Positions 32,520-49,894 of a stretch of 64,000 bases of DNA are shown piece after piece; position 1 is the stretch's first letter, and each line of letters begins with the position of its first letter. Made by a program: the position numbers and the translations under genes. The notes under the pieces are model-generated. The model did not search any database. It worked only from the letters and a program-made list of their open reading frames with translations, and was not told the DNA's origin. This DNA comes from Candidatus Omnitrophota bacterium (lineage in GTDB: Bacteria; Omnitrophota; Gorgyraeia; JAHJTE01), in the NCBI GenBank assembly GCA_018830005.1, contig JAHJTE010000001.1, positions 577,332 through 641,331 on the forward strand, given 5' to 3'.

Positions 32520-32538
32520 ATAAAAAGGAGTGAACATT

Positions 32539-33225
32539 ATGAATAACCATACAAATGGAACAAATATTTTTGCCGATAAGGCGACCATTATCTTAAGAAA
32601 AATGCTGTCTGATCCTGAAAAGAAATGGGTTACGCGCGACTTTACAGGTGATGACGGGGTAAGCCTTGGAATGGCGCAAGGAGCGCTTGAAGCCATGGAG
32701 AAGAAGGGTTATATTGAGCGGGTCAAACGCGGCCCCGATAGCCACGCACTTCTTACGAACAAAGATAAGCTTATCAGCGATTGGGTCGCAGAGTACCAAT
32801 TTGAATTAAACAAAGTCGATACCTATTATTCTCCGGACAAAAATATCTTATCAAAGCTTAAGGATTATCTACAAGATAAGTCATACGCGCTTACGCTTCA
32901 TTCCGGAGCCAATCTGATGACTTCCTTTGTAGCCACAGATCAGGTCTATCTGTATTTTTATCCTGAAGACTGGAATAAGGATATTCTCGAGTTGCGCCAA
33001 CAGCTTGATTTAAAGGAACTCGTAAGGGGCGGTAATGTTCATATTATCCGTCCGTATTACAAAATAAGCGCATTTTATGGCGCCCAGACAATAAAAGGAT
33101 ATAAGGTTGTTTCTAATTTGCAGCTTTATCTGGACCTCTACAACTTTAAACCTCGCGGCCGTGAGCATGCACAACACCTTAAAGAATATCTGCAAGAGAA
33201 GGGAAAGAATTTGTATGAATCTTGA
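32539..33225 (+). CDS. winged-HTH protein, AbiEi-like putative antitoxin/regulator
   Basis: ATG at 32539 eight nt after AAGGAG. N-terminal wHTH (KWVTRDF...LGMAQGALEAMEKKGYIERVKRG). Overlaps the next gene. Confidence 0.45.
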   Translation: MNNHTNGTNIFADKATIILRKMLSDPEKKWVTRDFTGDDGVSLGMAQGALEAMEKKGYIERVKRGPDSHALLTNKDKLISDWVAEYQFELNKVDTYYSPDKNILSKLKDYLQDKSYALTLHSGANLMTSFVATDQVYLYFYPEDWNKDILELRQQLDLKELVRGGNVHIIRPYYKISAFYGAQTIKGYKVVSNLQLYLDLYNFKPRGREHAQHLKEYLQEKGKNLYES

Positions 33226-34012
33226 GAAAATCGAAGCCGTATTTTTCAATGTGCTTGAAGATATAAGCGATTATCTTCCGGATCTCACCCTTGTTGGAGG
33301 GTGGATGCCGTATGTTTACTCAAATTATCTTTGGAAGAAATCAGTTCGCAATCCGGTAGTTACGGTTGACATAGATTTTGGCGTGGATGAATCTGTTAGC
33401 GGAAAATATCCAAAGACAATTTTTGAAACACTCTCTTCATTAGATTACAAAGAACGTCATCCGAAGATGGACAGGCTATTTCCTGTTGTGCTGTATAAAG
33501 AGAAAATCCCGGTAGAATTTATTACATATCCTGCCGTTGATATTAAGGCAATCGAGAAGATGGTCGGCCAGCAAATTCAGATAAACAAGATAGAAAAATT
33601 TGATTTTCTCTTAAAGCACAGGATTCCGGTAAGCATTCAAACTAAAAAAAAGAGCAAAACCTATACTTTGAATTGCCCGAGACCATCAGCTTTTTTATAT
33701 CACAAGGGCGCAACTTTTATTGATAGAGAGAACCAAGAGAAACAGGCCAAAGATTTATATTATATGTATTTCATTTTGCGCTATGCGCCTGATATTGATG
33801 TGATTTTGCAGGAAGTATCCCAGTATAAACAAAAGGGATATTTAGTAAATACCGCGGATAACATAAATAAATTTTTCGAAAGGGTCTCAAGCCAGGGCTG
33901 TCTTCTAATAGAGCAGGAAAACGGCCCCGACGAATTCATTCACGACGTGCGGCAGGATATTTTTGATAGATTTAAACGCCTAAGAGATGTATTGCAAGGG
34001 ACTATCAAGTGA
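33215..34012 (+). CDS. AbiEii/DUF1814-like nucleotidyltransferase (putative toxin)
   Basis: LVGGWMPYVY...VTVDIDFGV motif. Paralog of the 5010-5720 protein. ATG overlaps the upstream stop. Confidence 0.5.
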   Translation: MNLEKIEAVFFNVLEDISDYLPDLTLVGGWMPYVYSNYLWKKSVRNPVVTVDIDFGVDESVSGKYPKTIFETLSSLDYKERHPKMDRLFPVVLYKEKIPVEFITYPAVDIKAIEKMVGQQIQINKIEKFDFLLKHRIPVSIQTKKKSKTYTLNCPRPSAFLYHKGATFIDRENQEKQAKDLYYMYFILRYAPDIDVILQEVSQYKQKGYLVNTADNINKFFERVSSQGCLLIEQENGPDEFIHDVRQDIFDRFKRLRDVLQGTIK

Positions 34013-34698
34013 AAGTCTACGCCGTCGGAGATATTCACGGCGCTTACAAGGCGCTCATACAGTGTTTTAAGCGCTCAGAATTCGACTATAAGAAAGACCG
34101 CTTGATAGTGATGGGGGATGTTTGCGATGGGTATCCGGACGTTAAACAGTGCATCGATGAACTTTTGAAGATTAAACACTGCGATCTGGTCATTGGCAAT
34201 CATGATATGTGGGCGCTGGATTGGGCGCTTAAAGGTGATAAGCCGGAGATATGGACAAGCCAGGGCGGTGACCGGACTATGGCCTCTTATAACGGCGGTC
34301 CTATGCCGCAGGCGCATATTGATTTCTTGAAGAATGGCCAGCTTTGGATCGAACGCGATGAACAAATCTTTGTGCATGGAGGATTCAATACGGATCTATT
34401 ACTTAAAAGCCATAGCGTGGATGCTTTGGTCTGGGATAGAACCCTTCTTGATATGGCTTGGAAGATGGAAATAGCTAGCCGTAAACGTCAGTTAGGTAAG
34501 TATAAGGATATATTTGTCGGCCATACGACAACAGAGCTTTACAATACACTACAGCCGATTCATGTATGTAATGTCTGGAATATTGATACCGGCGCAGGCT
34601 GGTCAGGAAAACTTACGATTATGGATGTTGATACAAAGAAATACTGGCAGTCGGACTTATCACCGGATTTATATGGTGGGACGCCGGATAATTTGTAA
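34009..34698 (+). CDS. calcineurin-like metallophosphoesterase (PrpE/ApaH/lambda-PPase-like)
   Basis: VYAVGDIHG, GDVCDG and GNHD motifs. Confidence 0.7.
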   Translation: MKVYAVGDIHGAYKALIQCFKRSEFDYKKDRLIVMGDVCDGYPDVKQCIDELLKIKHCDLVIGNHDMWALDWALKGDKPEIWTSQGGDRTMASYNGGPMPQAHIDFLKNGQLWIERDEQIFVHGGFNTDLLLKSHSVDALVWDRTLLDMAWKMEIASRKRQLGKYKDIFVGHTTTELYNTLQPIHVCNVWNIDTGAGWSGKLTIMDVDTKKYWQSDLSPDLYGGTPDNL

Positions 34699-34799
34699 AT
34701 TTTATTCCGGACATTATTTCGGACATTTATCGGCCATTTCGGACAATTGAAAGATGAGCCTAAGGGGACATAAAAGGGACAAATAAGCAGGATCTTATT

Positions 34800-35360
34800 A
34801 TGAACTACTGGTGGACAGCAGATTATCACTTTTCGCATTTCAATATCATTCGCTATTGCGAGCGGCCTTTTAAAACGGCTGAAGAAATGAATAGGGTGAT
34901 TATCCGCAAACATAACGAGAGGGTGAAACCCGAAGATACGGTATTCTTTCTGGGTGATTTTATCTTTAAGGGCGGGAAAGAAGGCGGAGAAGAGAGGTAT
35001 CGTGAGTTTGAGAAGAAACTAAACGGGAAGTTTATTTTCATCAAGGGTAATCACGACCGTAACAACAGCCTTAAGACGATCATTACAAAGATGTATATTC
35101 ACTACGGCTCAAAGGATATCTGCATGACGCACCGTCCGGAGAATGCTGACCCGGACGTGCCGCTTAATTTCTGCGGCCATGTTCATCAGCATTACAAGAT
35201 AAAACGCCTGAATGACAAGTCCTTAATCGTGAACCTTTCGGTTGAGGTTTGGAATTATTATCCGGTCTCATTTAATGAGATAAGCTCCGCTGTTTCAGCG
35301 TTTAAGAGGGAAGAAAGAAAAGCTGAGGTGGTTGAGGCTAATACAGGACATAAAGAATGA
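34800..35360 (+). CDS. calcineurin-like metallophosphoesterase, small
   Basis: WWTADYHFSH, FLGDFIFKGG, GNHDRN and GHVHQ motifs. Confidence 0.65.
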   Translation: MNYWWTADYHFSHFNIIRYCERPFKTAEEMNRVIIRKHNERVKPEDTVFFLGDFIFKGGKEGGEERYREFEKKLNGKFIFIKGNHDRNNSLKTIITKMYIHYGSKDICMTHRPENADPDVPLNFCGHVHQHYKIKRLNDKSLIVNLSVEVWNYYPVSFNEISSAVSAFKREERKAEVVEANTGHKE

Positions 35361-35824
35361 CGAAAAAAACTTTTAGACATTCAGCAGGGTTTGGGAAAAG
35401 GATTGAATATTGGGTTATCGGCCTGATGCTTAAAGAAGGGATTGATGTTTATGTGCCTTTAGTCGATGATGATGCGATCGACGCGGTTATAAAGAAACCT
35501 GATGGAACGTTTATTGAAGTTCAAATAAAGGCAAGGTCTAAAACCGTTAAAATGGGAGATGGAGCTCTATTTGCGGCCATTACACATGAGGCGCGTAAAG
35601 ATTATTACTTTGTGTTTTATTCTGAACGCTTGGATACTTTTTGGATAATGTCATCAGAGGAATTCATTAAGGAATCTGTTCAAAATAAATCAGGCAAAAA
35701 TGCCGGATTAAGATCGATCTGGTTTAATGGTAAACGCAAAAATAAAGAAACAGGCGAGTACAAAGAACATATTCATGAACGTTTCAAAAAATATGTAGTA
35801 AAAGATTTCTCAAGATTTAAATAA
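35357..35824 (+). CDS. PD-(D/E)xK nuclease-fold protein, Hjc/Holliday-junction-resolvase-like
   Basis: GKRIEYWVIGLMLKEGIDVYVPLVDDDAIDAV...FIEVQIKARS follows the E..D-x-D..E-x-K arrangement of Hjc/Mrr-type nucleases. Confidence 0.4.
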   Translation: MTKKTFRHSAGFGKRIEYWVIGLMLKEGIDVYVPLVDDDAIDAVIKKPDGTFIEVQIKARSKTVKMGDGALFAAITHEARKDYYFVFYSERLDTFWIMSSEEFIKESVQNKSGKNAGLRSIWFNGKRKNKETGEYKEHIHERFKKYVVKDFSRFK

Positions 35825-35850: not shown

Positions 35851-37857
35851 ATGACCATAAATTTTAAAGAAAGAGCAAATTTTATCTGGAGTATTGCTGA
35901 TCTTCTGCGAGGTGATTATAAGCAGTCGGAATACGGTCGGGTGATTTTGCCGCTCACGGTCCTGCGTCGCTTGGATTGCGTACTTGAACCAACAAAAGAG
36001 AAGGTTTTGTCGTATCTTCCACAGGTTAAAAGCTTATCCCCGGGAGCTGCTGAAACCGTTCTAAAGAAAAAGGCGAAGTTGTCTTTCTACAATAAGAGCA
36101 AGTTTGATTTTCGAAAGCTAATCGCTGACCCGAATGATATCGCCGCTAATCTCAGAAATTACATCAATGGGTTTTCCAAAAATGCCCGCAGTATCCTAGA
36201 ACACTTCAATTTTGATGACCATATTGAGCGGCTCGATAAATCTAACCTATTGTATATGGTTGTTAAGCGCTTTGCCGATGTGGATTTGCATCCCGAAGCA
36301 GTTGCTAATATTGAAATGGGTTATATTTTTGAGGAGCTTATCCGGAAATTCGCCGATCTTTCCAATGAGACAGCGGGGGAACATTTCACGCCTCGAGAGG
36401 TTATCAGGCTTATGGTTAATATCCTTTTTTTAAATGACAAAGAGATTCTTACAAAGAAAGGTATTGTTAAGACGCTCTTTGATCCTGCCTGCGGAACTGG
36501 CGGCATGCTTTCCGTGGCAGAAGAGTATCTGCGCGAGCTCAATCCAGATGCGGATCTGCGAGTGTTCGGGCAAGAGCTCAATCCTGAATCGTACGCCATT
36601 TGCAACTCTGACATGCTCATCAAGGGACAGAATACGGAGCATATCAAGTTTGGCAATTCCTTCACCCAAGATGGGCTTAAAGACGAAAAATTTGATTATA
36701 TGTTGAGCAATCCTCCTTTTGGCGTGGAGTGGAAGAAAATTAAAGACGAGATCACCAAAGAATATGAACAATTGGGTTTTTCCGGGCGTTTCGGTGCAGG
36801 GCTCCCGCGTATCAGCGACGGTTCATTTCTCTTTCTTCAGCACATGATTTCTAAGATGCGTCCGGAAGATGGCGGCGCACGGCTCGGGATTGTTTTTAAC
36901 GGATCTCCCTTGTTTTCAGGTGGGGCCGGAAGCGGTGAAAGCGAAATCCGCAAATGGATTATCGAGCATGATATGCTTGAGGCAATTATTGCCTTGCCAG
37001 ATCAGCTTTTTTATAACACAGGCATATCGACTTACATATGGATAGTTACCAATCGCAAAGAGAAAGAACGCAAAGGCAAAATTCAGCTTATCAATGCGGT
37101 TGAGTTTTTTGTCAAAATGGCCCGCAGCCTCGGGAATAAACGCAATGAAATTAGCGATGAGCATATCGCTAAAATTACTAAGATTTACGGAGAGTTTAAG
37201 CAGGGAGAATACTGTAAAATATTTCCCAATAAATATTTTGGCTATACGCGCGTAACAGTTGAGAGGCCTTTACGTCTTAATTTCCAGATATCCAAGGAGC
37301 GGATGGATAGGCTTAGCGAGCAGAGTGTTTTTATTAATCTCGCTAAGTCTAAGAAGAAAGGCAAAGCTGGTTTGAAGGAAGCTGAAGAAGGCGAAAAACT
37401 GCAAAAAGAGATTAAAACTATGCTTTCGCAGATGGACGCATCCAAGGTTTACAAGAACAGACAGCAATTTATAGAGGCTATTGAAGAAGCAATTAACAAA
37501 AGGGAACTTAAGGTCAAAGCGCCGGTTATGAAAGCCATCATGGACGCTCTTTGTGAGCGTGATGAAACTGCTGACGTTTGTTTAGATAAAGATGGAAAGC
37601 CAGAGTCTGATACAGAATTGCGCGATTGTGAAAATGTTCCCTTGCTTGAGGATATCGATGCCTATTTCAAGCGTGAAGTCCTACCTCATGTGCCGGATGC
37701 ATGGATGGACAGGAGCAAAGACAAGGTTGGCTATGAGATTAATCTTACCAAAGAGTTTTATAAATACAAACCGTTAAGGTCGCTTGAAGATATTCGCAAA
37801 GATATCCTGGCTTTGGAGAAAGAGACCGAAGGACTGATGGATCAGGTGTTGGAATAA
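35851..37857 (+). CDS. hsdM: type I restriction-modification system, DNA methyltransferase subunit
   Basis: N6-adenine MTase motifs FDPACGTGGML (motif I) and LSNPPFG (motif IV). 668 aa. Confidence 0.9.
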   Translation: MTINFKERANFIWSIADLLRGDYKQSEYGRVILPLTVLRRLDCVLEPTKEKVLSYLPQVKSLSPGAAETVLKKKAKLSFYNKSKFDFRKLIADPNDIAANLRNYINGFSKNARSILEHFNFDDHIERLDKSNLLYMVVKRFADVDLHPEAVANIEMGYIFEELIRKFADLSNETAGEHFTPREVIRLMVNILFLNDKEILTKKGIVKTLFDPACGTGGMLSVAEEYLRELNPDADLRVFGQELNPESYAICNSDMLIKGQNTEHIKFGNSFTQDGLKDEKFDYMLSNPPFGVEWKKIKDEITKEYEQLGFSGRFGAGLPRISDGSFLFLQHMISKMRPEDGGARLGIVFNGSPLFSGGAGSGESEIRKWIIEHDMLEAIIALPDQLFYNTGISTYIWIVTNRKEKERKGKIQLINAVEFFVKMARSLGNKRNEISDEHIAKITKIYGEFKQGEYCKIFPNKYFGYTRVTVERPLRLNFQISKERMDRLSEQSVFINLAKSKKKGKAGLKEAEEGEKLQKEIKTMLSQMDASKVYKNRQQFIEAIEEAINKRELKVKAPVMKAIMDALCERDETADVCLDKDGKPESDTELRDCENVPLLEDIDAYFKREVLPHVPDAWMDRSKDKVGYEINLTKEFYKYKPLRSLEDIRKDILALEKETEGLMDQVLE

Positions 37858-38576
37858 TGTTTATCAGGAGATTTATAAAAAGTACGCCTAGTTTTTATAT
37901 TATGGTGATGATACTCCTTGGCGTTATTTGCTTTATTGTGGCCAAATATGTTCACGGAGATCTTAAGTCAAACTTGATAGCTGAGGTCATAGGAGCAGCT
38001 ATCACGGTTATTATTATCGGTGGCTTATTAAGGATTTGGTATCCCCCACCCACCAAAACGATGTCTAAGTTTTTAATTCCTATGTTGCAGTATTACCTTT
38101 TTGGCTATGTGCGTAGTTTAGGATTTTTATTGCAATATCGCTTTGATAATACAGGGTTCAAAGGCATGAGTCCTATTGATCTTAGCACCTATGGTGTTTT
38201 CTTGGAGAGAAATCTGAACGGATTAAAACAGCATCTCGAACAGAGAAATAATACGAACTATACGCGAGCTGAATTACAACAGATGAAAAGAATGTTTCAG
38301 GCCTTTCATAATGCTATAAACGAATTTGTTATTCGTTACGGGAACCATTTGGACGACGATCTTCTCAATTTGCTCTACCAAATACGGCATATATGCGAGT
38401 ATCAGGTTTTCTATACAGGTGCCTTCTCATTAGAAAATGAATCGCCTGATGAAGTAGTTTGCATGGGGCAAGATATATCGAATGAGCCTATGAAGAATGT
38501 TTTAATATTGATTGAAAAGATAATGACTAAGATTAAAGACGGTACTGTACTCAAAACTGAACCGCTACCCATTTAG
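37857..38576 (+). CDS. hypothetical membrane-anchored protein embedded between hsdM and hsdS
   Basis: ATG overlaps the hsdM stop (TAATG). Two N-terminal TM helices then a 170 aa soluble domain. Stop lies 4 nt before the hsdS start. Confidence 0.5.
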   Translation: MFIRRFIKSTPSFYIMVMILLGVICFIVAKYVHGDLKSNLIAEVIGAAITVIIIGGLLRIWYPPPTKTMSKFLIPMLQYYLFGYVRSLGFLLQYRFDNTGFKGMSPIDLSTYGVFLERNLNGLKQHLEQRNNTNYTRAELQQMKRMFQAFHNAINEFVIRYGNHLDDDLLNLLYQIRHICEYQVFYTGAFSLENESPDEVVCMGQDISNEPMKNVLILIEKIMTKIKDGTVLKTEPLPI

Positions 38577-38580
38577 TGAA

Positions 38581-39828
38581 ATGAAAAAATATCCGTCATA
38601 TAAAGATTCGGGAATTGAGTGGATTGGACAAGTGCCAAAGGATTGGCAGGTTAATCGTTTGAAAACGGTTTGCACTTTTACCTATGGAGATTCTTTGACA
38701 AATGAGGATCGAGTTGAAGGCGGTATTCCGGTCTTTGGTTCAAATGGAATTGTCGGCTATCACAACAAAGCGATTACGCATAAGCCATGCATTGTCATTG
38801 GACGCAAAGGTTCATATGGTAAAGTTAATTTTTCACAAGCAGAGTGTTTCCCTATCGATACTACTTACTTTGTTGACGACCGTTCAGCAAAATGTGATTT
38901 GAAATGGCTTAATTATGTTTTGCCGCTTTTAGAGCTCGATAAGTTTTCTAAGGACACTGGGGTTCCGGGGCTTAATCGGGAAGATGCGCATGACAAAAGA
39001 GTGCCAGTGCCTGAAAATAATGTTCAAAAAGTTATTGCTGAATATCTCGACCGCAAGACCGCGCAGATTAATGACCTTATTGCTAAGAAAGAGCGGATGA
39101 TTGAGCTTCTCAAGGAGGAGCGCACAGCGATTATCAATCAGGCGGTTACCAAAGGGCTTGATCCTAACGTGGAGATGAAAGATTCTAACACCGAATGGCT
39201 AGGAGAGATTCCGAAGCATTGGGAGGTGAAAAAACTAAAATATCTTGTTGATAAAGTTCAAACAGGAATAACGCCACCTTCAGAACGTACTGACTATTAT
39301 GATGACGGTGACATTGATTGGTATACGCCAGGCGATTTTCAAGAGTCGATTCGGTTAAAAAATTCTTTTCGAAAAATCAATAGATTAGCTATCGAAGAAG
39401 GAGTTGCGAGAATATTCCCGCCGCTCTCTGTCTTATTAATCGGAATTGGAGCTACGTTGGGTAAAGTCGGTATCATTGAAAAGCTATCAAGTTCTAACCA
39501 GCAGATAAACGCTATAACATTTTCGGATAAATTCAATCCATTTTTTGGTGTTTACTATTTACAGGCAATAGCTGATACAGTCATAAGTCTTTCAAATGCT
39601 TCTACTCTCGCCATTCTGAATCAGACGCAGACGAAAGATATTCTTATGTTGGTGCCACCCTTAGAAGAACAAGGCAAGATTTTTAAATATATTCAATCGG
39701 TTGAGCTTAGACATTCCGAAATTGTTAATAAAGAACAAAAGCAGATAGATTTATTAAAAGAATATCGCACTGCTTTGATTTCCGAGGTAGTAACGGGTAA
39801 AGTAGATGTTCGGGAGTACGCCGCATGA
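38581..39828 (+). CDS. hsdS: type I restriction-modification system, specificity subunit
   Basis: Two target-recognition domains, each preceded by W(I/L)G(Q/E)(V/I)PK(D/H)W(Q/E)V conserved regions. Central and C-terminal coiled coils. Confidence 0.85.
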   Translation: MKKYPSYKDSGIEWIGQVPKDWQVNRLKTVCTFTYGDSLTNEDRVEGGIPVFGSNGIVGYHNKAITHKPCIVIGRKGSYGKVNFSQAECFPIDTTYFVDDRSAKCDLKWLNYVLPLLELDKFSKDTGVPGLNREDAHDKRVPVPENNVQKVIAEYLDRKTAQINDLIAKKERMIELLKEERTAIINQAVTKGLDPNVEMKDSNTEWLGEIPKHWEVKKLKYLVDKVQTGITPPSERTDYYDDGDIDWYTPGDFQESIRLKNSFRKINRLAIEEGVARIFPPLSVLLIGIGATLGKVGIIEKLSSSNQQINAITFSDKFNPFFGVYYLQAIADTVISLSNASTLAILNQTQTKDILMLVPPLEEQGKIFKYIQSVELRHSEIVNKEQKQIDLLKEYRTALISEVVTGKVDVREYAA

Positions 39829-42800
39829 GCTCAATTACAAACGAAAAAGCTTTTGAAGAAACCATTGAACGAAGCCTAATTGATCATGGAAGCTATGTTA
39901 AGGGCGACCCTGATAAATTCAATCGGGATCTTGCAATTGATCAAACAGTCTTGTTTCAGTTTATCAAGGATACTCAGAAGAATGTTTGGGATAGCTTGGC
40001 GGCTATTCATGGCGCTGAAGTAGAAAAGAAGTTTTTATATCGTCTTAATCAGGAATTAGATGCACGTGGAATGCTTGATTGTTTGCGTCATGGTATCATC
40101 GATTACGGTAAGAAGTTTGCCCTCGCCTATTTTAAACCTGTCAGCAAATTAAATCCCGAAACGCAAAAGCTTTATAATCAGAATATCCTCACTGTTACGC
40201 GTCAGGTTCATTACAGCACAAAAGACGAAAGCTCTATTGATATGCTTTTATCTGTAAATGGCCTTCCTGTGGCTACGATTGAGTTAAAAAACCCATTTAC
40301 TGGCCAGGATGTTGATGATGCCAAGCGGCAATACAAATATGACCGCGATGAGCGGGAACTATTGTTTCAGTTTAAGCAGCGCGCCCTTGTCCATTTTGCC
40401 GTGGATACAGATGTTATTTATATGACTACGCGTCTCCAAGGGAGCAAGACAAAATACCTACCTTTTAATAAGGGCTATAACAAAGGTGCCGGAAATCCGC
40501 CAAATCCTAATGGGCATAAGACGGCATATTTATGGGAAGAGGTTTTAGTCAAAGATAGCTGGATGGATATTTTAAGCAGGTTTTTGCATTTAGAAGTAGA
40601 AGAAAAGGCTTTTGAGGGCAGGAAATTCAAAATTGAAACCATGATCTTCCCCCGTTATCACCAGCTTGATAGCGTTCGACAGCTTTCTATGGATGTAATT
40701 ACACAGGGCGCCGGAAAGAATTATTTGATTCAGCATAGCGCAGGAAGCGGCAAGAGTAATTCAATCGCATGGCTTGCCTACCATTTGGCTGGCCTTCACG
40801 ACAAAACCGATAAACGTATATTTGATTCAGTGATTGTGATTACCGACCGTGTTGTTCTTGATAAGCAGTTACAAGATACGATTTATCAATTTGAACATAA
40901 ATCAGGAGTGGTTGAGAAGATTGATAAAGATTCCGCGCAATTAGCCCAGGCGCTTATCAGCGGAACGAACATTATTATTACTACGCTCCAAAAGTTTCCT
41001 TTTGTTTTGGACAAGGTTAGCGATCTTCCCAAGCGCAATTACGCCGTTATTGTTGATGAGGCGCATAGTTCGCAGGGCGGTGAATCCGCTAAGAAAATGA
41101 AAGATGTACTTTCTTCAGTTGATAGAGATGAGATTTCGCTTGATGGGACTGATGAAGAAGATGATATAGAAGATACCATTCGCGAATCTATGCTTAAACG
41201 GGGCCCCAGGCCGAATCTGAGCTTCTTTGGCTTTACGGCAACACCCAAGGCAAAAACACTGGAATTCTTTGGCCAAAAAGGCATAGATGGTAAACCTCAA
41301 CCGTTTCATCTTTATTCCATGCGCCAAGCCATTGAGGAGAGGTTTATCCATGATGTCCTTGAGAATTACACTACCTATCAAACGTTTTTTCAACTATCCA
41401 AGAAGATTGAAGAAGATCCGAACGTAAACAAGAAAAAGGCTGCCCGTGCGATTGCGCGCTTTTTGACACTCCACCCCTATAACCTGGCTCAGAAAACCGA
41501 GGTTATGATTGAGCACTTCCGGCAGGTTACTATGAAAAAGATTGGCGGTAAGGCCAAGGCGATGGTGGTTACAGCTTCGCGCGAGCATGTGGTGCGATAT
41601 AAGCATGAATTTGATAGATACCTGAAAGAGAAAGGATATAGAGATATTAAGGTTCTTGTCGCTTTCTCAGGGGTAGTTCTTTTGGATGGCATACCGCCAG
41701 AATATTCAGAAGAAAGCATGAATAAATATGTCGATAAAGATGGTAAAGAACGGCACATAAAAGAAAAAGAATTGCCGGAGAAATTCTCAACATCAGAATA
41801 CCAGATATTGCTTGTTGCGGAGAAATATCAAACCGGGTACGATGAGCCGCTTTTGCACACTATGTATGTGGACAAGCGCCTTGATGGCGTTAAGGCTGTG
41901 CAGACCATGAGTCGTTTAAATCGAATCTGTCCGGGCAAAGAAGATACTTTCATCTTGGATTTTGTTAATAAGCGAGAGGATATTTTAGCGGCTTTTCAGC
42001 CATATTATGAGCAGACACAATTAAGCGATGTAACCGATCCGAACAAGCTTTATGATCTTAAGGCCAAGCTGGATTCGTTTAAGGTGATATACCAGTCAGA
42101 TGTTGACGCTTTTTGCGCCGTATTCTTCAAAAATAAAGAATTACAGACAAAACGCGAGCATGCTCAATTAAATTCAATAGTAGATGTGGCGGTTGAGCGG
42201 TTTAAGGCAATAGAGAAAGACGAGCATAAAGAGGATTTTATCAATACACTGGGTGTTTTTGTCCGCCTGTATGCGTTTTTGGCGCAGATTATGCCGTTCC
42301 AAGATATTGAGCTTGAGAAATTCTACGCTTATTCTCGTCTTTTACTGAAGAAACTTCCGGGGTCTGACCGGGGTGAAAGATATCACCTCGGTGATGAGGT
42401 CGCGCTTGAGTATTACCGTTTGCAGAAAATAGCTGATGGCAAGATTCAATTGCAAAAGGGTTCAGGTGCGGCTATTGAGCCGATTTCAGAAGCTGGAACG
42501 AGAAAGGATAAAGAAGAATATGCTCACCTATCTGAAATAATCAAACTTCTCAATGAACGGTTTGGAACTGATTTTACCGAAGCCGATAAGCTATTCTTTG
42601 ATCAGATTGAAGAAGAGATGGTTATGGATGAAAAACTTGGCGTCCAAGCCAAGACCAACACGATAGATAATTTCAAATACGGCTTTGAGGATGTGTTTAT
42701 TGCAAAGCTTGTTGACCGGATGGATCAGAATCAGGATATCTTCAATAAGATTATGGATGACAAGGCTTTTGCGGTAGTTGTGAAGGATTATTTATTGAAG

Positions 42801-43340
42801 AAGGTCTATAAGCGATTAAATATTGAAGAAGATGTTGTAAGAGAAGCCGAATCGTTTTTGAGTGATTTGGTTCCCGATGATGAGATAACGCAAGATCAGA
42901 AAAAGTCGCATGTTCGAGTCTGCACTCTTCAAGCCGTAGCAACTTCATTTACTGAACAGCGAACGCCCGAAGTAATTGGCTGGAAACGCTTGGATGGCGT
43001 CTTTAAACTCAATAAAGATATGTTTATCGCTAAAGTCGTTGGCAAGTCGATGGAGCCGACTATTAAAGACGGCAGTTGGTGTTTATTCCGCCCGGATCAG
43101 GGCGGAAGTCGTAACGGTAAGATTGTATTAGTGGAATCGCGGCATATTACTGATCCCGAGACGATGAAAAGTTATACGATTAAGCGTTATTTTAGCGAAA
43201 AAGCGGTAACTGAAGATACGTTTCAACATGTAAAAATCATCTTACGCCCAGATAATAAAGATTTTCAAGATATCGTTTTGGAGAATGTTCAAGAGGGCGA
43301 CTTCCACGTTGTAGCGGAGTTTGTGAAGGTGATTAGTTAA
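39825..43340 (+). CDS. hsdR: type I restriction enzyme R subunit with a fused C-terminal S24 (LexA/UmuD-like) peptidase domain
   Basis: HsdR N-terminal motif TIELKNPFTG, Walker A QHSAGSGKSNS, DEAH box VIVDEAHSS and helicase C motifs. The last ~125 aa read VVGKSMEPTIKDGSWCLF...GKIVLVE...YTIKRY...ILRPDN, like the LexA C-terminal domain. Confidence 0.8.
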   Translation: MSSITNEKAFEETIERSLIDHGSYVKGDPDKFNRDLAIDQTVLFQFIKDTQKNVWDSLAAIHGAEVEKKFLYRLNQELDARGMLDCLRHGIIDYGKKFALAYFKPVSKLNPETQKLYNQNILTVTRQVHYSTKDESSIDMLLSVNGLPVATIELKNPFTGQDVDDAKRQYKYDRDERELLFQFKQRALVHFAVDTDVIYMTTRLQGSKTKYLPFNKGYNKGAGNPPNPNGHKTAYLWEEVLVKDSWMDILSRFLHLEVEEKAFEGRKFKIETMIFPRYHQLDSVRQLSMDVITQGAGKNYLIQHSAGSGKSNSIAWLAYHLAGLHDKTDKRIFDSVIVITDRVVLDKQLQDTIYQFEHKSGVVEKIDKDSAQLAQALISGTNIIITTLQKFPFVLDKVSDLPKRNYAVIVDEAHSSQGGESAKKMKDVLSSVDRDEISLDGTDEEDDIEDTIRESMLKRGPRPNLSFFGFTATPKAKTLEFFGQKGIDGKPQPFHLYSMRQAIEERFIHDVLENYTTYQTFFQLSKKIEEDPNVNKKKAARAIARFLTLHPYNLAQKTEVMIEHFRQVTMKKIGGKAKAMVVTASREHVVRYKHEFDRYLKEKGYRDIKVLVAFSGVVLLDGIPPEYSEESMNKYVDKDGKERHIKEKELPEKFSTSEYQILLVAEKYQTGYDEPLLHTMYVDKRLDGVKAVQTMSRLNRICPGKEDTFILDFVNKREDILAAFQPYYEQTQLSDVTDPNKLYDLKAKLDSFKVIYQSDVDAFCAVFFKNKELQTKREHAQLNSIVDVAVERFKAIEKDEHKEDFINTLGVFVRLYAFLAQIMPFQDIELEKFYAYSRLLLKKLPGSDRGERYHLGDEVALEYYRLQKIADGKIQLQKGSGAAIEPISEAGTRKDKEEYAHLSEIIKLLNERFGTDFTEADKLFFDQIEEEMVMDEKLGVQAKTNTIDNFKYGFEDVFIAKLVDRMDQNQDIFNKIMDDKAFAVVVKDYLLKKVYKRLNIEEDVVREAESFLSDLVPDDEITQDQKKSHVRVCTLQAVATSFTEQRTPEVIGWKRLDGVFKLNKDMFIAKVVGKSMEPTIKDGSWCLFRPDQGGSRNGKIVLVESRHITDPETMKSYTIKRYFSEKAVTEDTFQHVKIILRPDNKDFQDIVLENVQEGDFHVVAEFVKVIS

Positions 43341-43450: not shown

Positions 43451-44713
43451 ATGAATAGTGCAATTGAAACTTTTTATTCAGATTTAAGGCGCTTGAAAGA
43501 AGGAAAGTTGGCCATATTTTTCGGTGCGGGATCGAGTTATGATTATGGAATTCCCACTATGGAAGAAATGGCGAAGATGCTAATTGAAGAATTAAAAAAT
43601 GGTACAAGTAAAATTTTTGATAAAGATACATGCACAGTTTTAAATTCAATTATTGGTTTATCAACTAAAGATAGCGAGGGCGAGAGTAAAAAGCAAAAAA
43701 ATAGTTCACAATGGAATATTGAAGATTTATTGACACGATTACATCGTATTCAAGAAGCTATAGGCGATGAAGGGTCTCCTTTCCCAAAGGTTAATGCTAC
43801 TATTGGTTCATCTGATTTTTCGAAAGATGAGATTAAACATGCTGAGTCAAAATTAGTTGAGTTTATGGTCAAATGCTATCAGCTAGACATCGTTGACAAA
43901 ACCTCACATGGTGTCAAATCGATAGAATATCTGTCTAACTTTTTTGAGTGCTTGGGGGGTTTTTATAATTCAATTTCTGTTTTTACAACTAATAACGATC
44001 TGTGTATTGAGACAGCTCTGCTTCAGCTTTCACAGAGACCTAAAAATACTCAAAAGAAAACTTTTTACTTAATAGATGGATTTTCTCATGGTGCGCTACC
44101 AATATTTTCGATGACTAATTTTTCAATTGTACCTCCCACTCAATCTAATCGTGTAGTTGTATATTTATGGAAATTGCACGGTTCAATAGATTGGACATAT
44201 ACTTGCCCATTAACAGATAATGAGGACGAGAAAACAGAAAATACTAAGTTTCACGACGATTCTATTATTTGTAGATATATCGACCCTGATATGTGGAGAA
44301 AATTTCAAAAAGCCGGAGCTATTTCCAAAGCATCTTCGTTAGATCAATCAAAAATAATGATTTTCCCGACACCATCTAAATATTCTCAGACTTATAACAA
44401 CCCATATATGGATCTATATCAAGCTTTTCGCCGAACACTAGAGACTTGCGAACTTCTACTAGCAGTTGGCACTAGCTTTCCAGATAGTCATATAAATTCA
44501 GCAGTGAAATCGTTTATTAATCGTGATAATACCCAACTTTACGTAGTTGATCCTGAAGTAACATGTGAATCTATTCATAAGCTATTTGGTAAATGTAATT
44601 CCATACAGCCGATCATCAAGTCAGGATTTAAAGATTTTATTCAAGAGGTCCGCAATATCGAATTAATGCGAGAAAAAGAAAGCCCAAAAGAAGGAAGGGA
44701 TAATAATGAGTAA
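43451..44713 (+). CDS. SIR2-family (SIR2_2) NADase-like protein, Sir2-HerA defense component
   Basis: N-terminal KLAIFFGAGSSYDYGIPT (GAGxS) motif of the SIR2_2 family. Overlaps the downstream HerA-like gene. Confidence 0.75.
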   Translation: MNSAIETFYSDLRRLKEGKLAIFFGAGSSYDYGIPTMEEMAKMLIEELKNGTSKIFDKDTCTVLNSIIGLSTKDSEGESKKQKNSSQWNIEDLLTRLHRIQEAIGDEGSPFPKVNATIGSSDFSKDEIKHAESKLVEFMVKCYQLDIVDKTSHGVKSIEYLSNFFECLGGFYNSISVFTTNNDLCIETALLQLSQRPKNTQKKTFYLIDGFSHGALPIFSMTNFSIVPPTQSNRVVVYLWKLHGSIDWTYTCPLTDNEDEKTENTKFHDDSIICRYIDPDMWRKFQKAGAISKASSLDQSKIMIFPTPSKYSQTYNNPYMDLYQAFRRTLETCELLLAVGTSFPDSHINSAVKSFINRDNTQLYVVDPEVTCESIHKLFGKCNSIQPIIKSGFKDFIQEVRNIELMREKESPKEGRDNNE

Positions 44714-46559
44714 ACGTATAGGTGAAATATTAGCTGTAAGCGGTGTAAATGTCACAATAGAAGCAGACCCAAGCTTAAGCGATTTGCATGTTCGGCACGC
44801 TGGAAAAACATATTCTGTTGGGCAACCTGGTTCATATCTTCTTGTTGATCGTGGGCATGATAAACATCTTATTTTAGTAACAACTGTTCGTAAGATGCGT
44901 TGGTCTTCTGCGTCGCAGAATTCTGAAATTTCTTCTTCTGATAATATGCGAGAAGGTCTTCCCAAAGGTAATTTCCCATATTTACCCAAAGCGCCTGAAT
45001 TGATTGATCGGACGCTTATCGATGGACTTCTCGTAGGTTCAATTATCGGGAGGCGATTTGAGATAGGTGTTACACACCTGCCGATAGTGGGGGATAGTGT
45101 TACCCTTGCTCTTCAGGAACATCTTTCAATAGCACTAGCCCCTGATAAAGATCGACACACAGTTTCAATTGGGACCTTTGTTGATTCGAATATCTCTGTC
45201 CATCTAGACTTAGACGATCTTTGTGGTAAACATTCAGCAATTGTAGGCACGACTGGTTGCGGAAAATCTTACACCGTCGCACGCTTATTGCAAGAGCTAG
45301 TATGTAAATATCCCAGTGCAAATATTATTGTGTTTGATCTGCATGGTGAATATCGTAAATGTTTTGAGCATTCAAATTATATACGGGCAGATAAACTTAC
45401 ACTTCCCGCATGGTTGCACTCGTTCGAAAACTTATTTGATCTGTGTGCCGATTTAAGTAATCAGTTTAACATTCATAATCAACGATGGGCTTTTCGAGAC
45501 GGCATATTTCAGCTTAAACAAAGATATTGCAAGGATATTTTAAAGGACGAATCCCTATCAAAGAATATCGATTTAGATTCGCCTATCCCTTTTGATTTTG
45601 AGCATTTAGTTAATTATTTAAAAAACTTGAATAATGAAACCAGAAAATCTGACGATGATAAGCCAGCTTATGCAACTGCTGGCGATCATGATTTATTTAA
45701 GGAACTCATTGAATATTTGCCAAAAAAACGAGGGAGTATAGCCGCTGGCCCTCTAAATGGAGAGTTAGATCGGCAAGTATTAAGAGTCGAGGCGAGATTT
45801 AAGGATCCTAGATATGCTTTTATGTTTCAATATGAAAAACCTAAAGAAGGGGATCTTGAAAGACTAGTGCGACAAGTATCAGGTCTTATACTCGATTCTC
45901 CCTTACCTATCACGGTTTATGACCTTAGTTATCTTCCTTCGGAAACAGTTGGAACAGTTGTAGCTACGATATCGCGTATTATTTTTCAAGTCTATTTTCT
46001 AGCCAAGCGTCGTGAGTTTGTCCCAACGCTTATTGTTTTCGAAGAAGCACATAATTACATATCTCATAGATCTCGCAGTGCTTATGGTGATGCTCGTGAG
46101 GCTGCTGAAAGAATTGCAAAAGAGGGCCGTAAATTTGGAATAGGCATGCTGGCAGTAAGCCAGCGTCCTAGTGAACTTAGTGAGACTTTATTGAGTCAAT
46201 GCAATACATTCTTATGCATGCGGCTTGCTAATTCTGTTGATAAAAATCACATTTTGTCCTTATTGCCTGACTCAATGAGTAATTTAGTAGATATTTTACC
46301 TATTTTGCCACGAGGGCATATTTTAGCAGTTGGGCAAGCTACAAAAATGCCGGTACGGACAATTGTTACTAAAATAGAAAATAAAAATAATGAGCCCGAT
46401 AGTGATGATCCGCCATTTGGAAAAAAATGGAGTGGGGATATTACGAAAAGAAGTATTCCTGATATAGAAAAAATATGCGATATGTGGATAAGGTCAGAAA
46501 AACAAGACACGGATGATATTGCTTCAAAGACAAAAAATTTATCGAGCGAGAAAAAATAA
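44706..46559 (+). CDS. HerA/FtsK-like ATPase (DUF87), Sir2-HerA defense component
   Basis: Walker A AIVGTTGCGKSYTV and Walker B LIVFEEAHNY. 617 aa. Confidence 0.75.
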   Translation: MSKRIGEILAVSGVNVTIEADPSLSDLHVRHAGKTYSVGQPGSYLLVDRGHDKHLILVTTVRKMRWSSASQNSEISSSDNMREGLPKGNFPYLPKAPELIDRTLIDGLLVGSIIGRRFEIGVTHLPIVGDSVTLALQEHLSIALAPDKDRHTVSIGTFVDSNISVHLDLDDLCGKHSAIVGTTGCGKSYTVARLLQELVCKYPSANIIVFDLHGEYRKCFEHSNYIRADKLTLPAWLHSFENLFDLCADLSNQFNIHNQRWAFRDGIFQLKQRYCKDILKDESLSKNIDLDSPIPFDFEHLVNYLKNLNNETRKSDDDKPAYATAGDHDLFKELIEYLPKKRGSIAAGPLNGELDRQVLRVEARFKDPRYAFMFQYEKPKEGDLERLVRQVSGLILDSPLPITVYDLSYLPSETVGTVVATISRIIFQVYFLAKRREFVPTLIVFEEAHNYISHRSRSAYGDAREAAERIAKEGRKFGIGMLAVSQRPSELSETLLSQCNTFLCMRLANSVDKNHILSLLPDSMSNLVDILPILPRGHILAVGQATKMPVRTIVTKIENKNNEPDSDDPPFGKKWSGDITKRSIPDIEKICDMWIRSEKQDTDDIASKTKNLSSEKK

Positions 46560-46641: not shown

Positions 46642-47547
46642 ATGAAAGATAAAATTTTAGAAAACGCAATTGATTTTAACCAGAAAGGAATGAAATATTA
46701 CGTAGGAGAAGATATGAAACATTCTCTGCTAAATGTAGCTGTTGCAGCGGAATTATTAGGGAAAGCTTTTTTGGTAGGTATAAATTCTTGTTTGATCATT
46801 GATAGAGATTTTGATTCTTTTTTACATATATGTGGAGAAGGTAAGCATGCAAAGAAAAGTCCTGCAAGTATTCGAACGATTGGAGCTAAAGAAGTATTTA
46901 GTCGTTGTGCCCAGATTGTTCCCAAGCTAAAAGACTACGACGTAGAAATGAGTTTGTTGGCTGATTTTAGAAGCGGTGTTCTTCATTTGGCAGAACACGA
47001 GAAAGAGTTTACAAAGAAAGTTTTCCTCCCTTATTTAAAGTTTGTAAAGATATTGTTAGAAGCCATGAAATTATCTTTAAGCGACTATTTTGGTGAATTC
47101 GCGCAACTTGTTGAAACTAGTATCAAGGAGGCTACGAAAGAAGTTGACATTAAAGTCGAACGGCTTATTGCTAAGGCGAAGATCAGCTTTAAAGAGAGAT
47201 TTGAGGATGTGGAAGCGCCAGTGAAAAGAAATATAATCAAAAGTATAATCGACAATTATGTTCTATCGCAGTATGAAGAAGAATTAACCGAATGTCCCGC
47301 TTGTGAAAACGATGCAGTTGTGACGGGATCTCATGAGGTCACGGATTGGGATGTTGATTTTGATCGTTACGGGAATCCAGAAGGGGCATATCCAATCGTC
47401 AAATTATATGCGACCTCTTTTAGATGTAATGTTTGTGGTTTAAAACTCAATACTTCCGAAGAATTAGAGTCTGCGGGCATTGATACTATTGTGCGTTTAG
47501 AAAATGTCAACCCAGCAGATTTTTACGATCCCGACAACACTTTCTAA
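46642..47547 (+). CDS. hypothetical protein with a C-terminal CxxC...CxxC zinc ribbon
   Basis: 301 aa. CPACEN ... CNVCG. Confidence 0.45.
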   Translation: MKDKILENAIDFNQKGMKYYVGEDMKHSLLNVAVAAELLGKAFLVGINSCLIIDRDFDSFLHICGEGKHAKKSPASIRTIGAKEVFSRCAQIVPKLKDYDVEMSLLADFRSGVLHLAEHEKEFTKKVFLPYLKFVKILLEAMKLSLSDYFGEFAQLVETSIKEATKEVDIKVERLIAKAKISFKERFEDVEAPVKRNIIKSIIDNYVLSQYEEELTECPACENDAVVTGSHEVTDWDVDFDRYGNPEGAYPIVKLYATSFRCNVCGLKLNTSEELESAGIDTIVRLENVNPADFYDPDNTF

Positions 47548-47602
47548 ATGATTTTCATAGGTAAAATTGTAGAAAAAAATAAAATTTTTCGAATGTCTTC
47601 TG

Positions 47603-48163
47603 ATGAAGGCGTATCGAGAGAATAATTTGCAAAATATGGAGGAAGCTATGAATACAAATTTTGATCAACCCTTCGATTTTAAGGTATCCGATTCATCTGA
47701 AAATTTTGATACTTGGATTAATCGTGAATACATACCTGCTGAATCGAGAACATTGTTACGTAACGCCAACATTCTTTTTGTCCCTCATGAGAATTTTCAC
47801 GAACAGAAAGTTCCTGTGTTTCCTCACAAAACTGAGGAAGTCTTTCATTTTCTTCGAAGGCATGCCCCTAAAGGGATTAATGTCGACATCTGTATTGCAG
47901 ATGATGATTATAAGGAAGTTGTCCTCCATTCTGCTTTAATTATTTTTGGAAGTATAGTTGTATCGGCGATAGCACTTCCTGTTCTTAAGGATTTACTGTC
48001 GGAATATTTGAAACAGAAATTATTTAACAAGTCTAACAGCAATATTAAAGTTTCATTGACCGTTGTTAATACTTCTGGTAAAGGGAAGCAGTTTGATTAT
48101 GAAGGGCCTATTGAAAATTTCGATAAAGTGGTTGCCAAAATCCAACGGGCTGGAGAGAAATAA
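47603..48163 (+). CDS. hypothetical protein (start uncertain: 47603, 47636 or 47648)
   Basis: ORF with one hydrophobic helix (LIIFGSIVVSAIALPVL). Confidence 0.4.
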   Translation: MKAYRENNLQNMEEAMNTNFDQPFDFKVSDSSENFDTWINREYIPAESRTLLRNANILFVPHENFHEQKVPVFPHKTEEVFHFLRRHAPKGINVDICIADDDYKEVVLHSALIIFGSIVVSAIALPVLKDLLSEYLKQKLFNKSNSNIKVSLTVVNTSGKGKQFDYEGPIENFDKVVAKIQRAGEK

Positions 48164-48166
48164 TCT

Positions 48167-49006
48167 ATGGACACTGAAGCAATTAAGCAATTTTTGAATG
48201 ATGTCCATCAGAGACATAAGGATTATGATTATACAAAAGTTAAATCGGTGTTACAGGAATTAAAACGAGGATTCGTTGCTACTAATAAACAGGATGAGGC
48301 CAAAGAAGTATGGTGTTATGAGCAAACAATAAATGCTCAAAAGAATTTTATGGAAGCTTACAAAGCATTAAAACAAGAAAAGTTTTATGAGGCTTGGTGT
48401 ATTTTGGAAAAATGCGAGATTGCCCTTTTGTATTTAAAACCGCATTTTTATCAACGGTTTTCGGAATATTCTTTGGATTTTATCGAAAATCATGCGCGAA
48501 TGTTACAATCATTGTATCCATATAAACTCTTTATAAGTCCAGAGATGCTTATCCATCATTACAAATGCAGTATATGCGATCAAAGAGTCGTTCTTCGGAA
48601 TCCGTGTAGACATGAAGTTGGAGAGATTTATAATGGCGAGATGTGCGTAAGAATCATAGACGGAATTGAGTTTCTAGGCTCAGCTTTTGTAACAAATCCT
48701 GTTCAAAAGTACTCAGTTCCGTTTTTGACCGATCAACAGACAGGTAAGACAGTAGATCCATATAATTATAACCTAGTAAAATTTTTAATTGAGAAGCTGT
48801 CTACACCATTTGATGATTGGAGCTTGAAATGGACGAAAAAGCTTCATCCGCATTCAAAATTTAAACATCTTAGTAGGAATGACAAATGTCCATGCGCTTC
48901 GGGGAAGAAATATAAGCAATGTTGCCTTAATAAAAAAGGAGTGCTAATGGATCATTGTATATTTTCTATTCCTGGAATAGAAGGTTGTGAAGAAAGGATT
49001 CTTTAG
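48167..49006 (+). CDS. hypothetical protein with a C-terminal SEC-C metal-binding motif
   Basis: KCPCASGKKYKQCC near the C-terminus. Confidence 0.5.
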   Translation: MDTEAIKQFLNDVHQRHKDYDYTKVKSVLQELKRGFVATNKQDEAKEVWCYEQTINAQKNFMEAYKALKQEKFYEAWCILEKCEIALLYLKPHFYQRFSEYSLDFIENHARMLQSLYPYKLFISPEMLIHHYKCSICDQRVVLRNPCRHEVGEIYNGEMCVRIIDGIEFLGSAFVTNPVQKYSVPFLTDQQTGKTVDPYNYNLVKFLIEKLSTPFDDWSLKWTKKLHPHSKFKHLSRNDKCPCASGKKYKQCCLNKKGVLMDHCIFSIPGIEGCEERIL

Positions 49007-49147
49007 GAAAATCAATAAAAGGCAATTGTAGAGATTTGCGTTACATCTAAACAGGATAGGTTATAAAAATAAGGGGGTAATTTTAAGCTTTTAGCAACAG
49101 GCGCTTGGTTTCATTTCGGCGTTCTTTCTCGCGGGAGACCAATCTTT

Positions 49148-49888
49148 ATGAGCACAACCTACGACCTCAACAAAATAAAATTCGCTACCGATGAAGCGAC
49201 GTTCAAACGTGCGGTGGGGTTATATGAGGGCGGCAAGGTGACGGAGGTTGAGGAGGCCTTAGGTGATTGGACAGCCATTGTGCTTGGGATTAAGCCGTAC
49301 CGGGTTTCTGTGTCAGGGCGTAATTACAAGCATAGCCATTGCACCTGTTATGTTGGAGAAAAAGGCACGCTTTGTAAGCACATGGTTGCTTTGGCAATCC
49401 ATGCGGTTATGGGAGGGAAGCCATTGGACGATAAGGATAAAGAGCTTTCTTGTGGGATTGAATACAGCGGGCGTCGCGGTGTGCTGAATAAGGAAGAATT
49501 AGAAGCGCTTAAGAAAGCTGTTACTGAATCTATGCGATATATAAAGCCTTACCGGGGGCCCTCACGCACCTGGTTTGCTAATCAGGATTCTTTACGGGAA
49601 GGATGCAACCGGTTGTCAGCCGTTATTTCTAGCCTGCCGGTTAACAAGCAGGTGGTTGATATCTTGGTCAAATTGCTTTTGCGCTTGGAAAGGAAGCTAA
49701 GTGTCGGAGGAGTGGACGATTCAAACGGTATTGTGGGAGGATTAGCCGGTGAATTAGTGGCTCTGCTTGAAGGATTCACAAAAATAGATCCGTCATGTAT
49801 TGATTCCTTTGAACCGCTTTGCGGGAAAGAGTATTGTTTCGGTTGGGAAGATCCACTTGTCCGTATTTTTGACGAGAGAGTTAAATAA
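49148..49888 (+). CDS. SWIM zinc-finger domain protein
   Basis: YKHSHCTCYVGEKGTLCKHMVA (CxCx(n)CxH). Confidence 0.55.
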   Translation: MSTTYDLNKIKFATDEATFKRAVGLYEGGKVTEVEEALGDWTAIVLGIKPYRVSVSGRNYKHSHCTCYVGEKGTLCKHMVALAIHAVMGGKPLDDKDKELSCGIEYSGRRGVLNKEELEALKKAVTESMRYIKPYRGPSRTWFANQDSLREGCNRLSAVISSLPVNKQVVDILVKLLLRLERKLSVGGVDDSNGIVGGLAGELVALLEGFTKIDPSCIDSFEPLCGKEYCFGWEDPLVRIFDERVK

Positions 49889-49894
49889 GAATAA

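Follow-up and report, generated by a model that had tools for sequence, protein, structure and literature searches.

In a 64,000-nucleotide stretch of a Candidatus Omnitrophota genome (GenBank assembly GCA_018830005.1, contig JAHJTE010000001.1, positions 577,332 to 641,331, hereafter the window), a type I restriction-modification (RM) operon carries an additional gene, which we call X, between hsdM and hsdS. X is one of many interchangeable cargo genes that occupy this slot in operons of a lineage with a 668-residue HsdM. Its embedding in the operon and the defence island around it, with AbiEi_2/NTP_transf_8 genes upstream and SIR2-HerA downstream, suggest by analogy that X serves in defence, and it is probably accessory defence cargo. 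The more specific proposal that X is a single-gene accessory anti-phage module, working autonomously and at the membrane, falls somewhat short of an even chance, and a membrane-disrupting mechanism is speculative.

The gene and its product

The sequence-only reading of this DNA had described a 239-codon open reading frame (ORF), joined to hsdM by a one-base overlap and ending 4 nucleotides before hsdS of a type I RM set, and every part of this description is borne out (Table 1). The TAA stop of hsdM (37855-37857) and the ATG of X at 37857 have one base in common (TAATG; sequence TTGGAATAATGTTT; junction letters with the overlap, GAATAATG), while the TAG of X ends at 38576 and is followed by TGAA and then by the hsdS ATG at 38581. 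HsdM, HsdS and HsdR were each confirmed by domain matches, and hsdS and hsdR overlap by 4 nucleotides. The stop/start overlap suggests that X is translationally coupled to hsdM. An internal promoter or terminator in X is unsupported, as consensus matches were no more frequent there than in shuffled sequence. Compared with homologues of 54-87% identity, X gave ratios of nonsynonymous to synonymous divergence (dN/dS, NG86) of 0.09-0.27, against 0.04-0.06 for the adjacent hsdM; X is therefore a real gene under purifying selection, and not a chance ORF.

A Kyte-Doolittle scan and the helices modelled by AlphaFold2 agree on the two N-terminal transmembrane (TM) helices proposed earlier, with hydrophobic segments at approximately residues 10-32 and 38-60 and 19-residue windows peaking at residues 11-29 and 40-58. 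Because R4, R5 and K8 precede the first helix, and R59, K67 and K71 lie after the second, the sequence suggests an N-in/C-in topology, with both ends of the protein and its C-terminal domain in the cytoplasm. The possibility of a lipoprotein or of a cleavable signal peptide was rejected, as X has no lipobox and the Cys in the first helix is not conserved. A conserved RIWYPPP linker, with its Pro-rich WYPPP, directly follows the second helix. The soluble domain put forward earlier is present and helical, but it is 179 residues long (61-239) and not 170, and it is confidently predicted to fold as a five-helix bundle, with helices at about residues 65-91, 110-129, 137-164, 167-189 and 210-228 of the AlphaFold2 model. 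The isoelectric point of the domain is 6.5, and its near-neutral charge gives no hint of nucleic-acid binding.

The family alignment identified a most conserved loop, in which F96, N98, G100 and F101 are invariant even in P0013, a member only 28% identical to X. The other residues that are invariant with P0013 included are Y84, G89, T111, F115, N119, M143, F157, Y174, C180, P211, L216 and E220. The only invariant polar residues in the family are N98, T111, N119, C180 and E220, with no Arg or His among them; the invariant residues are mostly structural, and no catalytic constellation could be recognised among them. The conserved C-terminal tail could be a docking peptide.

A small family with an apparently undescribed fold

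X and its aligned family members were scanned against Pfam and PADLOC-DB v2.0.0 (5027 PADLOC v2 models), and X also against NCBIfam and PHROGs. These scans gave nothing credible, consistent with the earlier statement that the protein has no recognisable motif. In Pfam and PADLOC, no credible match was obtained for 10 aligned members at expectation values (E) up to 10; PADLOC gave none for X at E up to 0.01, and the only hits across the 10 members were single weak PDC-S02 matches (E 0.014-0.022) in one member each. X has no Hsd-domain Pfam match that would mark it as a degenerate fragment of a core subunit, and a sequence-profile search of the PDB returned noise only (E ~1).

Ten family members emerged when 5.8 billion proteins were searched by word index with the single sequence. 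Exhaustive searching of 1.84 billion cluster representatives with a HMMER profile gave five true clusters and contributed P0011, P0012 and P0013. Repeating the word-indexed search with a profile that included P0013 yielded no relatives beyond the same ~13 proteins. P0014, a protein of 1890 residues with six repeated stretches that matched at E 6e-5, was treated as coiled-coil noise. Two members are encoded in metagenome-assembled genomes of Candidatus Omnitrophica. A scan of metagenome contigs returned one locus only, which was already known, and neither a scan of IMG/VR nor tblastn against phage and plasmid collections revealed a relative. In Foldseek comparisons with the PDB, the best match to the domain model had E 0.067 and a template modelling score of 0.31; full-length and domain models searched against the PDB and BFVD gave no match with E <0.05, and template modelling scores of at most 0.42. 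Remote homology and structure prediction, which had been proposed as the way to place the soluble domain, thus found no known family and no significant fold match, and the family and fold of X appear to be undescribed.

Cargo turnover in the hsdM-hsdS slot

We scanned one genome per GTDB species with the window HsdM and obtained 80 hsdM loci at 46-96% identity, none of which contained X. The sequence-only reading had named absence from related operons as grounds for giving up the idea of an accessory effector, and formally X is absent (0/80), but the slot mostly holds other defence-type cargo, which supports a role as accessory defence cargo rather than refuting it. In three of the 19 close relatives (HsdM identity ≥73%, slot readable) the slot was empty and hsdM overlapped hsdS at GTGA (L022, L023, L026); the remaining 16 carried one or two same-strand genes there, drawn from many unrelated clusters. 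Like X, these cargo genes keep tight stop/start overlaps with hsdM.

The cargo includes DUF4238 proteins (five loci, Pfam match only), YhcG/DUF1016 PD-(D/E)XK nucleases (four loci; PADLOC PDC-S02, E 8e-136), KAP NTPases (three loci; PDC-S20, QatA/PifA-like), Fic proteins (two loci; PADLOC SoFic, E 1e-114), an AbiEi-like protein and a PDDEXK_4 protein. Also present are proteins with an Rx4-6H motif recognised by eye (LRNKLMH in L029, IRNKFGFH in L027), transposase-like RAYT/IS200-like proteins with an HUH-type motif in L024, and small proteins with two hydrophobic helices (154-165 residues in L018/L039, 282 residues in L040). Homology of X with the membrane cargo of L018 (154 residues) and L040 (282 residues) was rejected at an hhalign probability <1%. 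Across this slot and the hsdS-hsdR slot described next, cargo proteins with no Pfam or PADLOC match are those of L018/L039, L040, L027/L049 (256-263 residues), L029 (201 residues) and, between hsdS and hsdR, L011 (202 residues); they are additional candidates comparable to X.

A second slot, between hsdS and hsdR, contains Peptidase_M78 with DUF4411 (15-16 loci), AAA_15/AAA_21 with a partner (8 loci), or DUF3644 (PDC-S19), which occurs together with X in the operons of L003-L006. In L011 it holds a 202-residue protein with one predicted N-terminal TM helix, giving that operon two membrane accessory proteins, X (P0003) and the single-helix protein. Proteins of similar size (201-202 residues), also with one predicted TM helix and forming a separate sequence cluster, occupy this slot in L028 and L035, whose hsdM-hsdS slots hold KAP and DUF4238, and not X.

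On a rough neighbour-joining tree of HsdM (C-terminal 200 residues, no bootstrap), X-bearing operons appear in at least three places, and the other cargo types are scattered too. Synonymous divergence relative to L007 and L012 was 0.24-0.34 for X and 0.63-0.70 for the adjacent hsdM. The scattered positions, together with the lower synonymous divergence of X than of hsdM, point to cassette exchange between related operons and not to one ancient insertion. The GC content of X (36.8%) is below that of hsdM (42.9%) and hsdR (41.4%), and this, with the lower synonymous divergence, is consistent with a history of X that differs from that of the operon backbone. More generally, the HsdM lineage has two precise and presumably translationally coupled cargo slots, hsdM-hsdS and hsdS-hsdR, that swap defence cassettes quickly, which makes it a convenient source of further unknown candidates, among them the other two-helix proteins, the single-helix 202-residue protein and DUF4238.

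Genomic contexts of the family

Recurrence of the gene inside other type I RM loci had been suggested as a check on its association with restriction, and homologues were found between hsdM and hsdS in at least seven further operons. The hsdM-X-hsdS arrangement is seen for seven members and is probable, from gene geometry, for one more (P0006), all beside HsdM proteins of the same 668-residue lineage. The members in this arrangement include P0004 (L003-L006), P0002 (L007, L008), P0003 (L011-L013), P0009 (L010), P0007 (L098) and P0011 (L097). The adjacent HsdM proteins are 75-95% identical to that of the window, and the diverged alleles of X span 50-87% identity, with some slot-borne cases down to 50-58%. 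The copy in L097 is broken by two homopolymer frameshifts (T8, A6), yet its ATGA overlap with hsdM is kept; the gene caller reported it as P0011, a protein of 177 residues lacking TM helices, and either the frameshifts are errors of assembly or the copy is decaying or phase-variable.

Four intact members are located outside any type I RM operon. P0008 precedes two uncharacterised genes and a type III RM methylase; P0010, whose real ORF encodes 271 residues including the TM helices, shares an island with AbiEi/AbiEii, an NgoPII-type endonuclease, Fic proteins and a YhcG nuclease; P0013 follows a PLDc_2 gene; and P0005 follows a DUF748 gene, a context not known for defence. Purifying selection was measured for two of the four, P0005 and P0010. 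No partner gene common to these contexts was found. Overall, 11 of the 12 known contexts of the family are RM or defence neighbourhoods.

Possible functions of X

Most genes that lie within type I RM, BREX, DISARM and Hma systems serve in defence, and 96.7% are co-oriented with the host system; they are often independent defence systems that are also found non-embedded, and more than half are unexplained (Payne et al., bioRxiv 10.1101/2024.01.29.577857). By this guilt-by-embedding logic X is a candidate, since it is on the same strand as its host operon, lies between hsdM and hsdS, and matches no transposase or housekeeping family. Like the PDC and HEC genes nominated in that way (Payne, Hughes, Fineran & Jackson 2024), X is nested among type I RM core genes and shares their orientation, its homologues also occur non-embedded, and in related operons its place is taken by alternatives such as PDC-S02, PDC-S19, PDC-S20 and SoFic. 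Unlike the PADLOC candidates, X matches none of the PADLOC models, and its family is far rarer than the abundance cut-offs of the Payne et al. study would pass. Unexplained genes embedded in type I RM have already been reported as common; what appears to be new here is the family and its fold. Another parallel is TgvAB, a validated GmrSD-like type IV restriction system in the type I RM operon of Vibrio cholerae VPI-2 (PMC11411939), which likewise provides a defence function of its own from within such an operon and does not need HsdR to work. TgvAB consists of two soluble proteins with a DUF262/DUF1524-type nuclease, and has no likeness to X in sequence or architecture.

An autonomous module acting at the membrane is the best-supported specific reading because X occurs intact away from hsd genes, has no conserved partner, and lacks any enzymatic motif. 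The four intact members outside type I RM argue that X can work without HsdMSR, and the lack of an enzymatic motif would leave the TM hairpin as its only plausible executive element, although that step is speculative. X would then be co-transcribed and co-translated with the RM genes, yet mechanistically independent of them. Its non-enzymatic cytoplasmic bundle would be the sensor or auto-inhibitory part and the membrane hairpin the executing part, and the hairpin might oligomerise and so dissipate the membrane potential, resulting in abortive infection, or it might hinder the entry of phage DNA.

Small abortive-infection effectors with two TM helices include SLATT-family proteins, the TM effectors of CBASS and Pycsar, two-helix retron effectors and AbiZ-type proteins. 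X resembles these in its small size, in the TM hairpin on a cytoplasmic helical domain, and in its defence contexts, but it differs from them in matching no hidden Markov model and in having no signal-generating enzyme and no conserved partner gene. If X is anti-phage, it would add to the known defence genes a new protein family with an apparently new helical fold on a two-helix anchor. To our knowledge, Omnitrophota is a phylum with almost no experimentally studied immunity.

Several observations weigh against this autonomous membrane module. No homology connects X with a defence mechanism, and the top structural matches of X (vinculin tail, Dps, Mcl-1 and ClyA) are not significant. Of the 12 members whose context is known, eight (seven shown and one probable) adjoin the same HsdM lineage, a pairing that functional dependence on HsdM would also produce. 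A constitutively co-expressed pore-former with no antitoxin needs tight auto-inhibition, which is unsupported here, and the first TM helix is poorly conserved, as in a mere anchor. The DUF748 context of P0005 is not obviously related to defence, and, because the family is tiny at ~13 proteins, the context statistics are weak.

The sequence-only reading had likened X to prrC, whose product is an effector held latent by the RM complex. Like prrC, X is indeed an accessory gene within a type I RM operon, but latency of the PrrC kind receives no support. prrC stands between hsdS and hsdR, and X between hsdM and hsdS; PrrC is soluble and combines ABC-ATPase-like and nuclease domains, while X is membrane-anchored and shows neither motif. 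PrrC is almost always embedded (Payne et al., bioRxiv 10.1101/2024.01.29.577857), whereas approximately one third of the X family lies outside RM operons. X does not resemble PrrC or RloC: it lacks the P-loop of the Walker A/B ABC-ATPase-like domain, and the 10 members gave no AAA, ABC or SMC Pfam match at E up to 10. The catalytic Arg and His of the anticodon nucleases have no counterpart, as the family has no invariant Arg or His. Every testable defining feature of PrrC is absent, and the analogy is a logical possibility, not a family assignment.

X could still follow PrrC logic as a guard that is bound and silenced by the HsdM2S core and freed once a phage anti-restriction protein (Ocr-, ArdA- or Stp-like) disables the RM complex, whereupon it would kill the cell through the membrane hairpin. 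The tight junctions with hsdM (1 nucleotide overlapping) and hsdS (4 nucleotides apart) fit such a guard, and so does the constant association of at least seven family members, diverged down to 50% identity, with one HsdM lineage. The conserved C-terminal tail and the FDNxGF loop could be docking surfaces, and PrrC itself is a precedent for a latent effector inside type I RM. We nevertheless consider a guard quite unlikely, given the four intact members with no hsd genes nearby, of which two were measured to be under purifying selection, and the polyphyly of X-bearing operons on the HsdM tree; moreover, the same slot holds SoFic, a system named by PADLOC, and the PADLOC stand-alone candidates PDC-S02 and PDC-S20. 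If true, the guard version would represent PrrC logic with a new, non-nuclease effector that collapses the membrane.

Next in order, and improbable, is the possibility that X is a passenger with no defence role, either a lineage-specific membrane protein or a mobile-element remnant in a recombination-prone slot. The slot accepts RAYT/IS200-like transposases too, the homologue P0005 has no visible defence neighbour, and X matches no defence model, all of which would be expected of a passenger. Purifying selection on X argues against this, as do its precise embedding, with the overlapping stop and start kept in several lineages, and the predominance of RM and defence neighbourhoods among the known contexts. 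In addition, no transposase, integrase or repeat features were found, and the phage, plasmid and IMG/VR collections contained no homologues.

Zorya is a membrane-anchored defence complex that acts on entering DNA, and X might similarly tether the RM enzyme to the membrane or regulate it. In such a role X would hold the complex of HsdM, HsdS and HsdR at the inner membrane (for example close to where phage DNA enters) or adjust restriction alleviation, with no killing involved. The absence of a catalytic motif, a first TM helix conserved in hydrophobicity only, like that of a simple anchor, a gene overlap that fits stoichiometric production with HsdM, and a plain helical bundle suited to protein-protein contacts are all compatible with a tether. 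Most close RM relatives lack X, however, and carry unrelated cargo or nothing, indicating that the RM enzyme can do without it; X is also found away from type I RM, and an interaction with Hsd subunits is unsupported. We place the tether after the passenger in probability. Guard and tether combined, a wiring of X to the RM enzyme through the conserved loop or the C-terminal tail is still unlikely, but its consistent pairing with one HsdM lineage keeps such a role alive, and RM wiring, if true, would explain why at least seven diverged alleles all stand beside the 668-residue HsdM. X would be of real interest only if an RM-coupled membrane mechanism were shown.

Finally, we regard it as highly improbable that X has a known effector fold, either that of HEPN RNases or that of SLATT-type two-helix pores, in a form too divergent for sequence methods to recognise: its two TM helices with a flanking cytoplasmic helical region are a SLATT feature but generic and not diagnostic, and its R160-x3-H164 motif and R177-H178 pair, like the Rx4-6H proteins of L027 and L029 in the same slot, recall HEPN, yet the spacing is Rx3H and not Rx4-6H, H164 is S in P0010 and K in P0013, R177-H178 is K-E in P0013, 10 members gave no match to the Pfam profiles SLATT_1-5, SLATT_fungal, DUF4231 or HEPN at E up to 10, Foldseek gave no significant match to either fold, and the X neighbourhoods examined contain no nucleotide-signalling gene, specifically none of the SMODS/CD-NTase, SLOG or TIR signal generators with which SLATT is associated. 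An assignment as HEPN RNase from the motifs RYGNH and IRH was rejected for the same lack of residue conservation.

Surroundings of the operon

The PDDEXK_5 gene upstream of the operon (Table 1) overlaps the second of two metallophosphoesterase genes and stops 26 nucleotides before hsdM; this second metallophosphoesterase recurs in L030, upstream of an hsdM of 96% identity. The upstream genes may be part of the hsdM operon or constitute another defence module. No tRNA genes are present within the window, so no tRNA marks the border of the island.

Table 1. Features of X, its operon and its surroundings in the window, with related genes at other loci.
Feature	Locus	Position	Strand	Description
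AbiE-like pair and following genes	window	32530..35824	+	AbiEi_2-like regulator and NTP_transf_8 nucleotidyltransferase (AbiE-like pair), two calcineurin-like metallophosphoesterases, PDDEXK_5 nuclease
hsdM	window	35851..37857	+	668-residue methyltransferase subunit; HsdM_N E 4e-30, N6_Mtase E 5e-63
X	window	37857..38576	+	239 residues, ATG start; orphan-family inner-membrane protein in hsdM-hsdS cargo slot; ORF call
TM helix 1, residues 10-31	window	37884..37949	+	Kyte-Doolittle peak 2.5, AlphaFold2 helix 10-31; hydrophobic, sequence poorly conserved in alignment
TM helix 2, residues 35-60	window	37959..38036	+	Kyte-Doolittle peak 2.46, AlphaFold2 helix; conserved K37, N39, T50, G55
Cytoplasmic domain, residues 61-239	window	38037..38573	+	predicted five-helix bundle; AlphaFold2 of domain alone, pLDDT 84, pTM 0.83
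Most conserved loop, F96-D-N98-T-G100-F101-K-G103	window	38142..38165	+	family alignment
Conserved C-terminal tail, ...VLKTEPLPI	window	38547..38573	+	L232, K233 invariant; P236, L237, I239 nearly invariant
hsdS	window	38581..39828	+	415-residue specificity subunit; Methylase_S E 3.5e-35
hsdR	window	39825..43340	+	1171-residue restriction/translocase subunit; SWI2_SNF2, HSDR_N, T1R_D3-like, Peptidase_S24 E 6e-9
HsdR C-terminal Peptidase_S24 domain, residues 1059-1165	window	42999..43319		LexA/UmuD-like, E 6e-9
SIR2 and HerA	window	43451..46559		420 and 617 residues, overlapping genes immediately after hsdR; PADLOC SIR2 E 9e-29, HerA E 9e-126
ORFs after SIR2-HerA	window	46642..51109	+	301, 186 and 404 residues with no Pfam match; 279 residues with SEC-C motif only; 246 residues with SWIM zinc finger only
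P0010	L001	7776..8591		X homologue outside type I RM
X copy called as P0011	L097	217..934		frameshifted
202-residue protein, hsdS-hsdR slot	L011	2759..3367		one predicted N-terminal TM helix; no PADLOC match
Single-helix protein, hsdS-hsdR slot	L028	10725..11333		separate sequence cluster
Single-helix protein, hsdS-hsdR slot	L035	4216..4821		separate sequence cluster

HsdR itself ends in a Peptidase_S24 domain, where a Ser motif (GKSMEPT) and a Lys motif (YTIKRY) can be made out. A literature search for an HsdR-S24 fusion turned up no paper. Close HsdR relatives whose alignment reaches residue 1170 retain the extension (for example L016, L018, L027, L028, L034 and L035), and it is absent from many distant HsdR proteins, which stop near residue 1000. 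The domain might confer RecA*-linked self-cleavage, and thus a built-in restriction alleviation.

Downstream, the SIR2 and HerA genes are, by their PADLOC matches, a SIR2-HerA defence system. This is a separate system and is absent from the other X loci. The ORFs that follow it on the + strand may continue the defence island.

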